Virus record (IMG/VR): IMGVR_UViG_3300013126_000009
Reading direction: 5' to 3' (one strand)
DNA length: 64,000 nt
Source: a virus
Lineage: Duplodnaviria > Heunggongvirae > Uroviricota > Caudoviricetes
The translations under genes and the position numbers were made by a program. The notes under the pieces were generated by a model. The model was not told the DNA's origin. It searched no databases and worked only from the letters and a program-made list of their open reading frames with translations. Each line of letters begins with the position of its first letter. Within the stretch, counting starts at the first letter, position 1. This document shows, piece by piece, positions 60,556-64,000 of the stretch.

Positions 60556-60903
60556 ATGAGTGAAATTATTAAACAAGAATATGATACCAATGGTAATGAA
60601 ATCTATTATGAGAATTCAAATGGATATTGGTATAAACGTAAATACGATACCAATGGTAATCGAATCTATTATGAGGACTCAACTGGATATTGGATTAAAC
60701 AAGAATATGATACCAATGGTAATCGAATCTATTATGAGTATTCATATGGATATTGGTATAAACAAGAATATGACACCAATGGTAATGTAATCTATTATGA
60801 GGATTCAAAAGGTAAAATAATTGATAATCGACCTATAGGTACTTGTAATGGTAAGGTAGTTGAGATTGAAGGTAAGAAATATAAATTAACAGAAGTAAAA
60901 TAA
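60556..60903 (+). CDS. YD/RHS-repeat-like mini-protein, family member 1
   Basis: MSEIIKQEYDTNGNEIYYENSNGYWYKRKYDTNGNRIYYEDS...; 21-aa period xEYDxNGNxIYxExSxGYWxK. Confidence 0.55.
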   Translation: MSEIIKQEYDTNGNEIYYENSNGYWYKRKYDTNGNRIYYEDSTGYWIKQEYDTNGNRIYYEYSYGYWYKQEYDTNGNVIYYEDSKGKIIDNRPIGTCNGKVVEIEGKKYKLTEVK

Positions 60904-60944
60904 TAATTAATAATAATAATAATAATAATAATAATAATAATAAT
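60903..60944. repeat. (TAA)n microsatellite, ~13 units
   Basis: TAATAATAATAA... run directly after the stop of the first repeat-family gene. Confidence 0.9.
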
Positions 60945-60959
60945 CAAAAACAAAAAATC

Positions 60960-61202
60960 ATGGAAAATTTTGAAAATAACACAATCGTATTGGAACCATC
61001 AACAAACACTCACAAACTAACAGCAAATGGTATTCAAGCAAAAGATTTGGGTAATGGTACAATGAAAATCAAAACCAACGGAAAAGCAATTGTAACACAT
61101 GGCGAACATGGAACAATAGCAACCGAAACACCTAACATTATCAAATACGTACAACAAGAAGTTAACCCAGTTACCAAAAAAATGCAAGCAGCTTTTGATT
61201 AA
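60960..61202 (+). CDS. hypothetical protein (non-repeat, embedded in the array)
   Basis: 80-aa ORF; a terminator follows. Confidence 0.35.
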   Translation: MENFENNTIVLEPSTNTHKLTANGIQAKDLGNGTMKIKTNGKAIVTHGEHGTIATETPNIIKYVQQEVNPVTKKMQAAFD

Positions 61203-61221
61203 TAGGTTAACAACTTAAAAA

Positions 61222-61260
61222 TAAATTAATGGGAATGTTCAAATACCTTCCCATTTTTTT
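61222..61260 (+). terminator. rho-independent terminator
   Basis: AATGGGAATGTTCAAATACCTTCCCATTTTTTTTT. Confidence 0.7.
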
Positions 61261-61275
61261 TTGTACCTTAGCACT

Positions 61276-61620
61276 ATGAGCAAAATTATTAAAAAAGAAT
61301 TTGATTCCAATGGTAATGTAATCTATTCTGAGGATTCAGATGGATATTTGTTTAAATATGAATTTGATTCCAATGGTAATGTAATCTATTCTGAGGATTC
61401 ATATGGATATTGGTCTAAATATGAATTTGATTCCAATGGTAATGAAATATATTCTGAGTATTCAAATGGATTTTGGTCTAAACGAGAATATGATACCAAT
61501 GGTAACAGAATCTATTATGAGAATTCAAAAGGATATTGGGATAAACGTGAATATGACGCCAATGGTAATCAAATCTATTTTGAGGATTCAGATGGTGAAC
61601 AGATATATTATATAGTATGA
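61276..61620 (+). CDS. YD/RHS-repeat-like mini-protein, family member 2
   Basis: MSKIIKKEFDSNGNVIYSEDSDGY...GEQIYYIV; start taken at MSKII rather than the track ATG. Confidence 0.55.
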   Translation: MSKIIKKEFDSNGNVIYSEDSDGYLFKYEFDSNGNVIYSEDSYGYWSKYEFDSNGNEIYSEYSNGFWSKREYDTNGNRIYYENSKGYWDKREYDANGNQIYFEDSDGEQIYYIV

Positions 61621-61898
61621 GCAAAATTATTAAAAAAGAATTTGATTCCAATGGTAATGTAATCTATCATGAGACTTCAAATGGATATTGGTATAAATAT
61701 GAATATGATACCAATGGTAAATTAATCTATTCTGAGTATTCAAATGGATTTTGGTCTAAACGAGAATATGATACCAATGGTAACAGAATCTATTATGAGA
61801 ATTCAAAAGGATATTGGTATAAACAAGAATATGACACCAATGGTAACATAATCTATTGTGAGGATTCATATGGTGAACAGATATATTATATATTATGA
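61617..61898 (+). CDS. YD/RHS-repeat-like mini-protein, family member 3
   Basis: ATGA-coupled to member 2; same N-terminal and C-terminal signatures. Confidence 0.55.
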   Translation: MSKIIKKEFDSNGNVIYHETSNGYWYKYEYDTNGKLIYSEYSNGFWSKREYDTNGNRIYYENSKGYWYKQEYDTNGNIIYCEDSYGEQIYYIL

Positions 61899-62239
61899 GT
61901 GAACTTATAAAACAAGAATATGATACCAATGGTAAATTAATCTATTTTGAGAATTCAAAGGGATATTGGTCTAAACAAGAATTTGATTCCAATGGTAAAT
62001 TAATCTATTTTGAGAATTCAAATGGATATTGGCATAAAAAAGAATTTGATACCAATGGTAATCGAATCTATTATGAGGATTCAGATGGATATTGGTGTAA
62101 ACGTGAATTTGACACCAATGGTAACATAATCTATTGTGAGGATTCATCTGGATATTGGTATAAACGTGAATATGATTCCAATGGTAACATAATCCATTAT
62201 GAGAATTCATATGGTGAACAGATATATTATATATTATGA
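61895..62239 (+). CDS. YD/RHS-repeat-like mini-protein, family member 4
   Basis: MSELIKQEYDTNGKLIYFENSKGYW...GEQIYYIL. Confidence 0.55.
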   Translation: MSELIKQEYDTNGKLIYFENSKGYWSKQEFDSNGKLIYFENSNGYWHKKEFDTNGNRIYYEDSDGYWCKREFDTNGNIIYCEDSSGYWYKREYDSNGNIIHYENSYGEQIYYIL

Positions 62240-62580
62240 GTGAACTTATAAAACAAGAATTTGATACCAATGGTAAGATAATCTATTGTGAGAATTCAAA
62301 TGGATATTGGTATAAATATGAATATGATTCCAATGGTAAAGTAATCTATTTCGAGGATTCAAGAGGCTATTGGTATAAACAAGAATATGACGCCAATGGT
62401 AATGAAATCTATTATGAGGCTTCAGATGGATATTGGTATAAACGTGAATATGATGCCAATGGTAATGTAATCTATTTTGAGAATTCAAATGGATATTGGT
62501 ATAAATATGAATATGATACCAATGGTAAATTAATCTATTATGAGAATTCAGATGGTAAGCAGATATACTACATACTATGA
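62236..62580 (+). CDS. YD/RHS-repeat-like mini-protein, family member 5
   Basis: Five 21-aa repeats; ends ...GKQIYYIL. Confidence 0.55.
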   Translation: MSELIKQEFDTNGKIIYCENSNGYWYKYEYDSNGKVIYFEDSRGYWYKQEYDANGNEIYYEASDGYWYKREYDANGNVIYFENSNGYWYKYEYDTNGKLIYYENSDGKQIYYIL

Positions 62581-62939
62581 AAAAACTTAAAGGAAATCAA
62601 ATCAACCAAAATATTATAAACAAACTGTTGGTCAACTCACCGTCAATAAACCAAACAGATTTTAAAATATATACAATAAAAAATATTTCACCAGAATTCA
62701 CAATACCAAGCAAAGCTAATGATAATATAAAACTTAAAGCAACAAACATTGAACTTTATGACCACCTAAATAATGAAACAATATATAAACAAATAGTAAC
62801 TCACGTATACCGAAACGCTAAAAATCAATGGTCACCACAAACATTAGAACTTTACCTAATGGATAATCAAAACGCAACAGAACTATTAAATAAAATAACC
62901 AAATTCATAACTATATACCAACTACTGAAAAACATATAA
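62577..62939 (+). CDS. hypothetical protein (non-repeat)
   Basis: 120-aa ORF, ATGA-coupled. Confidence 0.35.
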   Translation: MKKLKGNQINQNIINKLLVNSPSINQTDFKIYTIKNISPEFTIPSKANDNIKLKATNIELYDHLNNETIYKQIVTHVYRNAKNQWSPQTLELYLMDNQNATELLNKITKFITIYQLLKNI

Positions 62940-63216
62940 TGACAGAATCACGACATTGAATCAGTAATTAAAAACCCCATAAATCAAGCCTAAGACACTT
63001 TCTCGGTATAAACCATACTCAGGTACCATTTTATACTTTTATTAGCAAGTGTGCCATTTTTTAAAGTATTATGATAATTAACCCGTATAATGCTAAATGA
63101 AATAATCTGGTGGGTGAAAGTGGTAGAGAAATATGGTAAAATGGCAATAAGTGGTAAACAATGGTATATGAAATATATTATAATACGTAAATTATACCTT
63201 AATGACCAATGAGAAA

Positions 63217-63270
63217 TATACTAAGAATATACTAAGAATATACTAAGAATATACTAAGAATATACTGAAG
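63217..63270. repeat. 11-bp tandem repeat (TATACTAAGAA) x ~4.5
   Basis: ATATACTAAGAATATACTAAGAATATACTAAGAATATACTAAGAATATACTGAAG, inside an ORF-free stretch. Confidence 0.9.
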
Positions 63271-63403
63271 TAATCAACCCATTCATAAATTATTTATAGA
63301 TTTTACAAAATATTTTTGATATATACAAGTCATTTACCACAAAATACCACAATCAGTTTAAAAATTTTTATGTACCTTTATACCCCGAAATAATAACAAT
63401 ACT

Positions 63404-63622
63404 ATGATTAAGATTATAAAACGTGAATACGATACCAATGGTAATGTAATCTATTCTGAGTATTCAAATGGATATTGGTATAAACGTGAATATGATTCCA
63501 ATGGTAATCGAATTTATTTTGAGAATTCATATGGATATTGGTATAAACAAGAATATGACACCAATGGTAATGTAATCTATTTTGAGAATTCAGATGGTGA
63601 ACAGATATATTATATATTATGA
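63404..63622 (+). CDS. YD/RHS-repeat-like mini-protein, family member 6
   Basis: MIKIIKREYDTNGNVIYSEYSNGYWYKREYDSNGNRIYFENS...GEQIYYIL. Confidence 0.55.
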   Translation: MIKIIKREYDTNGNVIYSEYSNGYWYKREYDSNGNRIYFENSYGYWYKQEYDTNGNVIYFENSDGEQIYYIL

Positions 63623-63900
63623 GTAAAATTATAAAACGTGAATACGATACCAATGGTAATGTAATCTATTCTGAGAATTCAAAAGGATATTGGTATAAAC
63701 GTGAATTTGACACCAATGGTAACATAATCTATTGTGAGGATTCATCTGGATATTGGTATAAACGAGAATTTGATTCCAATGGTAACATAATCCATTATGA
63801 GAATTCAGATGGATTTTGGTGTAAACGTGAATACGATACCAATGGTAATGTAATCTATTATGAGACTTCAGATGGTGAACAGATATATTATATAGTATGA
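63619..63900 (+). CDS. YD/RHS-repeat-like mini-protein, family member 7
   Basis: ATGA-coupled; four repeats. Confidence 0.55.
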   Translation: MSKIIKREYDTNGNVIYSENSKGYWYKREFDTNGNIIYCEDSSGYWYKREFDSNGNIIHYENSDGFWCKREYDTNGNVIYYETSDGEQIYYIV

Positions 63901-64000
63901 GTAAAATTATAAAACAAGAATATGATTCCAATGGTAATGAAGTCTATTATGAGTATTCAAATGGATATTGGTATAAACGAGAATATGATTCCAATGGTAA
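63897..64000 (+). CDS. YD/RHS-repeat-like mini-protein, family member 8 (3'-truncated by window end)
   Basis: MSKIIKQEYDSNGNEVYYEYSNGYWYKREYDSNG... Confidence 0.5.
   Translation, partial: MSKIIKQEYDSNGNEVYYEYSNGYWYKREYDSNG

Follow-up and report, generated by a model that had tools for sequence, protein, structure and literature searches.

Tandem YD-repeat mini-proteins encoded in the accessory region of a large phage genome

The 64,000-nucleotide (nt) stretch of viral DNA analyzed here and referred to as the window (IMG/VR record IMGVR_UViG_3300013126_000009) closes with a tandem array of small genes, g1 to g8, each encoding a free-standing protein composed of copies of a 21-residue repeat of the YD type, with the consensus K-x-E-[YF]-D-x-N-G-[NK]-x-I-Y-x-E-x-S-x-G-Y-W-x. 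A preliminary description of the window had recognized eight plus-strand genes made of such 63-nt units between positions 60556 and 64000, with 3–5 copies of the unit per gene; the eight genes are confirmed by the open reading frame (ORF) list, by Tandem Repeats Finder, and by the raw sequence, and the copy numbers by unit counts for g1–g7. Some of the details given at that time require adjustment. The size range of 72–119 residues is correct in that the ORFs are small, but its upper limit comes from the placement of the start of g2 at an upstream TTG (61261), and with the ATG at 61276 the range becomes 72–115 residues. The common start, MS(E/K)(I/L)IK, does not extend to g6, and the C-terminal G(E/K)QIYYI(L/V) that had been attributed to every member is untrue of g1, which ends in ...GKIIDNRPIGTCNGKVVEIEGKKYKLTEVK and not in GEQIYYIL. 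The two unrelated genes reported to be interleaved in the array are present, and the additional ORFs of the minus strand and of the other frames prove, as had been proposed, to be by-products of the repeat, since they are themselves periodic. The features of the array and of its continuation beyond the window are collected in Table 1.

Table 1. Features of the YD mini-protein array in the window and in the second contig (L015) that extends it; lengths of proteins are in amino acids (aa)
Feature	Position	Strand	Description
g1 YD mini-protein	60556..60903	+	115 aa, 4 units plus beta-hairpin tail (CNGKVVEIEGKKYKLTEVK); from ORF list, sequence, and alignment with 30 homologues
(AAT)15 microsatellite	60899..60944		spacer after g1; Tandem Repeats Finder
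unrelated 80-aa gene	60960..61202	+	no family match; pairs with the 245-aa gene
terminator-like hairpin	61228..61262	+	8+2 base pair (bp) stem, then T9; folding gives minimum free energy −14.7 kcal/mol, z −2.1
15-nt motif, copy 1	61256..61270	+	TTTTTTTGTACCTTA; directly upstream of g2
g2 YD mini-protein	61276..61620	+	114 aa, 5 units; ends GEQIYYIV; ATG 61276 is the start in the source gene call
g3 YD mini-protein	61617..61898	+	93 aa, 4 units; ATGA overlap with g2
g4 YD mini-protein	61895..62239	+	114 aa, 5 units; ATGA overlap with g3
g5 YD mini-protein	62236..62580	+	114 aa, 5 units; ATGA overlap with g4
unrelated 120-aa gene (orf120)	62577..62939	+	ATGA overlap with g5
11-nt tandem repeat, 4.7 perfect copies	63215..63266		AATATACTAAG; in the 464-nt non-coding gap before g6; Tandem Repeats Finder
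15-nt motif, copy 2	63365..63379	+	TTTTTATGTACCTTT; upstream of g6
g6 YD mini-protein	63404..63622	+	72 aa, 3 units; starts MIKIIKRE
g7 YD mini-protein	63619..63900	+	93 aa, 4 units; ATGA overlap with g6
g8 YD mini-protein	63897->64000	+	cut by window end; complete on L015 2163-2507: 114 aa, 5 units
g9	beyond window (L015)		72 aa, 3 units
DUF1281_C gene	L015 3111-3926, ~1.1 kb past window end		271 aa; Api92-like ferredoxin-like domain; between g9 and g10
g10	beyond window (L015)		103 aa; leader MTVGQLLKHDFSKGSL, tail KRPKGTCSGKIVEIEGKKYKLTEV; typical member of the widespread subtype

Six ATGA stop/start overlaps (at 61617, 61895, 62236, 62577, 63619, and 63897), which bear out the earlier statement that several of the genes are coupled in this way, link the genes into two runs, g2-g3-g4-g5-orf120 and g6-g7-g8, with each next gene in the −1 frame. 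The junctions within the runs have the AT-rich sequence ATATATTATATA(T/G)TATGA, which also codes for the C-terminal IYYI[LV]. Tandem Repeats Finder detects a period of 63 nt, with 2.8–4.9 copies per gene and 83–86% matches, as well as periods of 215, 278, and 341 nt that represent gene-sized repeats, and the genes of the array differ in length by exact multiples of 21 residues. As read from the sequence, the N-termini lead directly into the first strand and include no signal peptide or membrane segment; having no export signal, the mini-proteins would be expected to stay in the cytoplasm. The first gene, g1, begins 1 nt past a 245-residue gene and is placed between this gene and the 80-residue gene, which adjoin each other in related phages. 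In a model of g1 generated with AlphaFold2 (AF2; predicted local distance difference test score, pLDDT, 93), its tail forms an extra hairpin with strands at residues 101–104 and 107–110, and g1 is a chimera of the short N-terminus found locally and the tail of a widespread subtype of the family that is described below.

The window lies in the Joint Genome Institute (JGI) contig Ga0172373_10000165 (100,004 bp, sample 3300013131), and L014 is 99.99% identical to window positions 52236–64000. A second contig, Ga0172376_10027180 from sample 3300014720 (L015), has the identical arrangement, with 99.96% identity over the 2266 nt common to both, and runs 2.8 kb past the window, where it contains the complete g8, g9, the DUF1281_C gene, and g10; the array therefore has ten members across ~5.5 kb. 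Its location, previously given as a genome end, is only that of the window end: it is near the end of one 100-kb contig, it continues for at least 2 kb, and proteins identical to g5 and g7 are recorded from four contigs, one of which is in the 0.2–1 Mb size class. The description of the DNA copies as very similar to each other was also an overstatement, in that pairs of paralogues of equal length are 84–90% identical in DNA and 65–77% identical in protein, and the longest exact stretches common to two paralogues are 90 nt (g2/g3) and then 69 nt (g4/g7).

These comparisons bear on the question of whether separate functional genes are present at all. Repeats are known to cause mis-assembly, the successive genes are in the −1 frame, and many of the variable codons are of the NNY type, so that the array might be viewed as an assembly expansion, as a broken or frameshifted long YD gene (including one with programmed −1 frameshifting at ATGA), or as a set of targets of a diversity-generating retroelement (DGR). 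Such explanations are extremely unlikely. The concordance of two assemblies that are 99.96% alike, the 10–16% difference in DNA between paralogues, and the lack of any exact paralogue repeat longer than 90 nt make assembly expansion very unlikely. A single frameshifted or broken gene was rejected because every gene has its own ATG and conserved N- and C-terminal pieces and because a stand-alone homologue exists on another contig (L001); also, the runs close identically even where there is no following gene. The DGR form of the argument is taken up with the codon statistics.

The identification of the repeat as YD/RHS-like is correct. It is based on comparisons of whole-protein sequences and of structures, which are decisive, whereas the short curated models are borderline. 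TIGR01643 (YD_repeat_2x) gives 19.0 bits with g5, against a cut-off of 15.8, 9–12.9 bits with g1, g3, and g7, and no match at E ≤ 10 with g2, g4, and g6, and the best score with Pfam PF05593 (RHS_repeat) is 17.2 against a cut-off of 22; both are short models with poor performance on this clean variant. The Pfam family PF07661 (MORN_2) does not reach its gathering score with the window proteins (21.0 bits at best, compared with 29.6), whereas mini-proteins from contig L010, used as a control, score 30.7–72 bits. With g5, the member that was modeled and used as the search query, phmmer comparison with all PDB sequences produced significant matches only to Rhs proteins and teneurins, in register over ~100 residues, with E-values of 2.7e-16 for RhsA (7q97; the best single stretch has an independent E-value of 4e-6), 1.1e-14 for Tse5, 3e-9 for Tre23, and 9e-7 for teneurin-4; no other class of repeat was found in the PDB below E 0.1, and no MORN protein even at E ≤ 10. 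An exhaustive phmmer search of 1.84 billion representative sequences yielded 18,289 matches with E ≤ 1e-3, of which 7298 reach E ≤ 1e-10; giant YD proteins of 2000–7000 residues lead the list, with E-values down to 1e-90.

Structure prediction, which had been proposed as a check, agrees with these results. The AF2 model of g5, generated from an alignment of 123 sequences, has a pLDDT of 96.3 and shows a beta-hairpin meander made up of eleven strands, and when it was compared with the PDB using Foldseek, the top 27 matches were all shells of Rhs proteins, Tc BC, or teneurins, with template modeling scores of 0.76–0.80 (best match RhsA, E 1.6e-7, score 0.76). The preliminary description had left itself open to correction on two points, a clear match to a repeat family other than YD and an origin of the array in the assembly of a single gene; no such match was found, MORN_2 staying below its cut-off, and the two assemblies agree.

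The repeat is thus the one from which the walls of RHS/YD shells are built (RhsA, Tse5, and Tse15, the Tc BC complex, and the teneurins), with the pattern ...Y-x-Y-D-x-x-G-(N/R)-(L/I)..., but the proteins differ in several respects. Rhs cocoons need many dozens of repeats, amounting to hundreds of residues, whereas the window proteins have 3–5 repeats in 72–115 residues; Rhs proteins have an N-terminal plug, PAAR/VgrG, a core with an aspartyl-protease motif, and a C-terminal toxin, whereas the window proteins have none of these and form a tandem phage family of ten. NF041261 (RHS_core), for which the cut-off is 2000, reaches 29.8 bits at most and matches in the repeat region only. No C-terminal toxin domain is present, the proteins stopping after the last repeat (IYYI[LV]) or after a 25-residue hairpin tail and matching no toxin family, and no PAAR, VgrG, or other type VI secretion system gene, no TcA/TcB delivery gene, and no cognate immunity gene was found among the window ORFs scanned. 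In scans of the members and their neighbors with Pfam, NCBIfam, PHROGs, and PADLOC, only sub-threshold repeat matches were obtained, apart from that of TIGR01643 to g5. Weak matches to SSSPR-51, Peptidase_M60_C, DUF5044, and EF-hand models were discarded as noise arising from the composition of the repeat. The YD mini-proteins consist of the building block of a cocoon wall, have no core, toxin, or export signal, and fall far short of the length at which a shell could close; the earlier view of them as a tandem array of free-standing paralogues outside any shell or toxin context is upheld.

The length of the repeat and its pattern of aromatic and glycine residues superficially recall cell wall-binding repeats, and the hairpins might accordingly act in the manner of choline- or glucan-binding repeats, with a polysaccharide or small molecule as ligand. 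The glucan-binding region of a dextransucrase (9i2j) does appear in the PDB list, at an E-value of 0.17 that is far below significance, and relatives of the family from Clostridia are membrane-anchored or secreted. However, no CW_binding or glucan-binding Pfam family was matched even at E ≤ 10, the phage proteins have no export signal, and all of the significant matches in sequence and structure are to YD shells, so that carbohydrate or cell wall binding is very unlikely.

Codon statistics were obtained from the 30 complete internal units of the array. The scaffold of the repeat is uniform at the level of the codon: K1 is AAA, N7 AAT, G8 GGT, E14 GAG, and S16 TCA in 30/30 units, and G18 is GGA in 29/30. 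This does not reflect codon bias, since neither the two Gly positions nor the two Glu positions have settled on a common codon and since an array in another contig (L020) has fixed a different set (GGA, TAC, GAA, TCT, and GGG, 8/8). The fixed synonymous sites imply, rather, that the units within the genome are very recently related or have been homogenized. Diversity is concentrated at seven of the 21 positions (2, 6, 10, 13, 15, 17, and 21), which are also variable family-wide (208 units from 120 homologues). At these positions the proportions of nonsynonymous and synonymous differences (pN and pS) are 0.39 and 0.13, a ratio of 2.9 as compared with 0.35 at the other fourteen, values that are indicative only, being derived from non-independent pairwise comparisons of recombining units. 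Nucleotide diversity at codon positions 1, 2, and 3 is 0.47, 0.40, and 0.13 in the variable codons and 0.02, 0.06, and 0.08 in the others; the sparing of third positions favors selection on the protein and disfavors a mutational hot spot. For whole genes, the ratio of nonsynonymous to synonymous substitution rates (dN/dS) between paralogues is 0.65–1.65. Mosaic blocks of 69–90 nt are common to paralogues, and these identical blocks, together with the exact 21-residue steps in length, support the earlier suggestion of recombination and changes in repeat number. Taken together, the sequence patterns indicate recent amplification or homogenization, followed by diversification.

In the model of g5, the strand register (from the DSSP string) is predicted to place positions 2, 10, and 21 on one face of the sheet with Y4, Y12, and E14, and positions 13 and 15 on the other face, with the conserved ladder of W20, K1, E3, and I11; positions 6 and 17 would lie in the two turns. 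As regards a DGR, the proposal was rejected from an inspection of 64 kb plus 2.8 kb of the genome: a scan of the 20 largest ORFs of the window detected no reverse transcriptase, no template copy lies outside the array, and the changes are not adenine-specific, since the first two positions of the variable codons can change at any base (GTA/CGA/ATA/GAA/TTA, for example).

A search of 5.8 billion proteins identified ~1980 small homologues, mostly metagenomic or viral. The best 120 (106–199 residues) are nearly all metagenomic and are unnamed or are labeled hypothetical or "YD repeat-containing protein"; the homologues are 50–70% identical and share both the 21-residue unit and the variable positions. 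Their ends vary and include a "MKTIAQQLNVKEFPF" leader ("MKTIAQQL..."), a helical leader of ~55 residues, a "DNRPKGCEGKVVEIDGKKYKLTEV" tail, a helix-turn-helix (HTH)-like "ELTLDEIAxKFGI" tail, and a bare "...DNR" end; fusions with DUF7666 also occur among the relatives. Direct homologues include one from a cultured phage, gp42 of Verrucomicrobia phage P8625, which is located among replication genes and annotated as hypothetical, and structural matches in BFVD are all uncharacterized. Eight of the ten array members (g2–g9) belong to a rarer subtype that has no leader, starts with MS[EK][IL]IK..., and has a C-terminal IYYI[LV], while g1 and g10 carry the tail of the widespread subtype. The rarer subtype was found elsewhere only in L001, a separate 93-kb viral contig that comes from one of the two samples in which the array was assembled (3300014720) and where a single gene of six units, flanked by unrelated genes, ends in IYYII.

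Tandem copies of the wider family are present in other contigs (2–3 in L003–L005, three in L022, and at least six in the 182-kb L020), with ATGA overlaps. In addition, polyproteins of 350–760 residues (P0121, P0123, P0124, and P0165) contain 2–6 full modules, each with helical leader, YD units, and IIDNRP linker, in one frame, and represent the tandem arrays in fused form. The Clostridia relatives, from metagenome-assembled genomes (MAGs; L016 and L017), are long proteins with 9–12 units, and a scan of a genome collection with a single protein gave four MAG loci only. Comparison of copy numbers across contigs, a further check that had been proposed, shows ten genes here, one in L001, which has nothing but this type of gene in common with the window, and none in L009, L011, and L012, which have the flanking gene pair. 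A megablast comparison of the region with 50,697 phage records gave no match, and no cultured phage is alike at the DNA level.

Since the predicted fold is a strip of shell wall, and Rhs walls close only through many repeats, the mini-proteins might be self-assembling structural units, in which open edges (the N-terminal strand IIKQEYD and the C-terminal strand QIYYIL) stack paralogues by their edges or faces into sheets, fibers, or a cage that could serve as scaffold, decoration, or compartment. In the model of g5, the strands at either end look like internal ones and there is no obvious capping element; the conserved aromatic face would presumably need to be buried; and the fusion of 2–6 modules in polyproteins suggests that several modules may act together. 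Nevertheless, the array is located among early or accessory genes and not among structural genes, a lattice would not be expected to favor amino acid changes at exposed positions, and the numbers of copies and units vary freely (3–5 units per protein, with one copy of the gene in L001 and none in three of the other contigs). Such a structural role is on these grounds improbable.

The genes between which g1 is inserted provide a link to a second array of similar design. The 245-residue gene (59817–60554) and the 80-residue gene are adjacent in four other viral contigs (L009–L012), with 57–65% identity, whereas here g1 separates them. Neither gene has a match in Pfam, in the PDB, or among cultured phages, and tblastn of the 120- and 245-residue neighbors against the same 50,697 phage records found nothing, PDB searches likewise yielding nothing usable; the sole match of orf120 is a weak and partial one to a PHROG labeled endonuclease (E 2e-4). 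One of the four contigs, L010 (IMGVR_UViG_3300031963_008158, 115 kb), which belongs to a distantly related phage, also shares the window gene at 38324–38794 and holds a second, divergent copy of the 245-residue gene at 12445–13140. Around its gene pair, in 20 kb (L010 2622–20727; contig range 87528–108253), there are at least 19 mini-genes of the MORN_2 type that encode proteins of 82–202 residues. These consist only of 23-residue MORN_2 repeats (unit GxWxxYYxNGQLxxKGNYVNGxxHG) that score above the Pfam gathering threshold, and their PDB matches are only to MORN proteins (MORN1, MORN4, junctophilin, and SETD7).

The two arrays share a design of proteins that contain hairpin repeats only, encoded in ATGA-joined runs next to the same gene pair, with a junction (ATATATTAYATA) that codes for IYYI. 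In L010, the repeats begin near the N-terminus, 16 of the 19 proteins end in [IT]YYI or IYFI, and the junctions are preceded by ATATATTA(T/C)ATA, coding for the C-terminal IYYI; two members also carry the HTH-like tail found in some YD mini-proteins. Both repeats form single-layer beta-sheet folds that are described as binding modules, but the repeat classes differ (23 compared with 21 residues), and the YD and MORN mini-proteins, at best remotely related with an hhalign probability of 25%, are treated as analogous designs. The shared junction could act at the nucleotide level to couple translation where Shine-Dalgarno sequences are not used by the organism, or it could be a cassette that has been moved by recombination; the IYYI peptide itself may matter, since the stand-alone gene of L001 keeps IYYII where there is no following gene.

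The presence, in a contig with the shared gene pair, of MORN_2 mini-proteins of the same design raises the possibility that the YD proteins are neutralizers of the immunity type, comparable to orphan immunity proteins or antitoxins (the part that YwqK-type MORN_2 proteins play toward LXG toxins), each paralogue acting on one toxin, either from neighboring bacteria or from an abortive-infection system of the host, so that the cell survives until lysis. MORN_2 is the family that NCBI names "YwqK family antitoxin." Diversified arrays of small binders are typical of immunity islands, and there is a weak, sub-threshold match to the BSAP-5i immunity family (E 0.15). YwqJ/YwqK is listed as a toxin/antitoxin pair (PMC6562991). 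On the other hand, there is no adjacent toxin gene, the neighbors (the 245-, 80-, and 120-residue genes and the DUF1281_C gene) matching no toxin family, and orf120 having only its weak PHROG match; the window proteins are of the YD and not the MORN_2 class; and no known immunity family is matched above threshold. The proposal is, moreover, a special case of the binder model discussed below, without separate support, and in its specific form is unlikely.

Several non-coding features may relate to the expression of the array. The terminator-like hairpin is a divider between the 80-residue gene and the first run of YD genes (g2 onward); it was missed by a scan for sigma-70 promoter and terminator consensus sequences, which gave many AT-rich chance matches and was uninformative. 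The 15-nt motif (TTTTTWTGTACCTTW) has exactly two exact copies in the window, each lying just upstream of the gene that opens a YD run, and this motif (TTTTTWTGTACCTT) may be a candidate promoter or leader for each run, used by the sigma factor of the phage itself, or else simply part of the duplicated segment. The (AAT)15 microsatellite and the 11-nt repeat could be regulatory sites or slippage-prone spacers.

By its gene content, the window represents an accessory or host-takeover portion of a large phage genome. Its large ORFs all run along the plus strand, and its G+C content is ~30%. There are fourteen tRNA genes, including three for tRNA-Leu, in three plus-strand clusters (7956–8618, 11481–11858, and 20287–20873), and genes for two RNA ligases (Rnl-type PHROGs 562 and 548), a Thg1-like protein, and an SPFH/Band-7 protein (1771–2925, 39058–40104, 53722–54441, and 52216–53610, respectively); in combination, the tRNAs, the ligases, and the Thg1-like protein suggest a toolkit for RNA repair. 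A Nudix-domain protein, a nicotinamide phosphoribosyltransferase (NAMPT), and a phosphoribosyl pyrophosphate synthetase-like protein (27496–28437, 28376–30034, and 31782–32840) form a set resembling phage genes for NAD+ salvage or reconstitution, presumably a counter to NAD-depleting defenses. The window also encodes a sigma-70 family factor with regions 2 and 4 (35920–36792) and a 393-residue protein (13980–15161) that matches the PHROG "transposase" phrog_506 (E 6e-127) and is probably a TnpB/IS200-605-type element inside the phage genome. The T5 A1-like "DNA transfer" protein (32855–34435) is 43–45% identical to proteins of Maribacter and Flavobacterium phages, and because these are the closest cultured relatives by this protein, the host probably belongs to the Flavobacteriia. 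Just upstream of the array, two overlapping ORFs (58822–59346 and 59288–59761) have hydrophobic N-termini and a similar Cys motif (RPIQICINGGN...NCKLVQFNP compared with RPRKLCVDCNCKTLNCRLVQIKK) and may be membrane-anchored paralogues.

The array very probably represents a lineage-specific family of ten small cytoplasmic proteins, encoded in the early or accessory region of a large phage, each of which is a single-layer antiparallel beta-sheet of 3–5 YD repeats. It is proposed that the genes form two transcription units (g2–g5 with orf120, and g6–g8), co-transcribed with coupled translation. The sequence statistics support growth of the family by whole-gene duplication, with 63-nt units gained and lost through unequal recombination, the units being kept or recently made uniform at synonymous sites while the seven variable positions gather amino acid changes. 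The K/E/W/I/Y ladder and the D-x-N-G and S-x-G turns would, according to the model, hold a rigid sheet, on which the variable side chains of one face and of both turns may provide a changeable binding surface. A panel of related binders of this kind could block or decoy proteins of the host or of rival elements during takeover, defense- or toxin-type proteins being the most plausible targets. MORN repeats are established protein-binding modules, and by analogy the MORN_2 array of the same design in L010 suggests a binding role for the YD array. The role in host range or anti-defense that was originally suggested for the array is one with which the pattern of amino acid-changing diversity in the sequences would be consistent. 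The array is therefore read, tentatively and with somewhat less than even confidence, as an accordion-like family that supplies a diversified panel of cytoplasmic binders in conflicts of the phage with its host or with rivals.

A number of points weigh against this last step, in addition to the non-independence of the comparisons from which pN and pS are derived. No defense or anti-defense model was matched (none in PADLOC, and in PHROGs only families of unknown function with weak E-values), and no target, partner, or phenotype is on record for any member of the family. In the structural model, the variable positions appear to be on both faces of the sheet as well as in both turns and would not form one clean patch. 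The YD and MORN arrays are alike in design only, the profile-profile homology being weak. Finally, the varied leaders and tails of the relatives (hairpin, HTH-like, helical of ~55 residues, and DUF7666), together with the polyproteins of 2–6 modules, could equally well fit a structural or scaffolding role.

With respect to known systems, further parallels are the accordion families of eukaryotic and giant viruses, namely the ankyrin and kelch proteins of poxviruses and the MORN and ankyrin proteins of giant viruses, with which the window array shares lineage-specific tandem amplification of a repeat scaffold and signs of diversification. The features that mark such families, tandem paralogues, homogenized synonymous sites, and an excess of amino acid-changing diversity, are all found here. 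The array differs from them in having a YD scaffold, a bacterial host, and no adaptor domain of the F-box or PRANC kind. The repeat class itself was already known, some relatives having been labeled "YD repeat-containing protein" by JGI, as were gene family expansions in large phages, such as a zinc-ribbon expansion of ~35 copies in Bacillus phage G (PMC7824862), and accordion dynamics have been discussed for large phages (PMC13359090). Marine viral long reads are reported to be enriched, relative to assemblies, in repeat proteins such as MORN (PMC9238414). Literature searches on YD, RHS, MORN, and YwqK proteins in phages, including jumbo phages, and on tandem paralogues turned up no account of small YD proteins from phages, of tandem arrays of phage YD mini-proteins, or of the parallel design of YD and MORN arrays.

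YD repeats have been known almost only as the walls of huge toxin shells and of teneurins, and here they occur as a free-standing module of 72–115 residues. The family is directly testable, as the proteins are small, soluble-looking, and confidently modeled. Should they prove to bind defense or toxin proteins, they would offer new anti-defense factors as well as a small scaffold of natural origin on which binders could be engineered; self-assembly would instead reveal the behavior of a shell-wall repeat that is not part of a shell. A broader and more doubtful proposition is that large aquatic phages carry hypervariable, translationally coupled arrays of 10–20 hairpin-repeat mini-proteins, of either the YD or the MORN_2 class, with one junction cassette, as an evolvable intracellular repertoire of binders directed against host defense and toxin proteins. 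Were this so, such arrays would be to bacterial viruses what host-range families of ankyrin, kelch, and MORN proteins are to poxviruses and giant viruses, and would amount to a natural "repeat-scaffold antibody" system; the uniform scaffold, the seven diverse sites in each unit, and the parallel MORN_2 array suggest that this may be a general and evolvable strategy of large phages.

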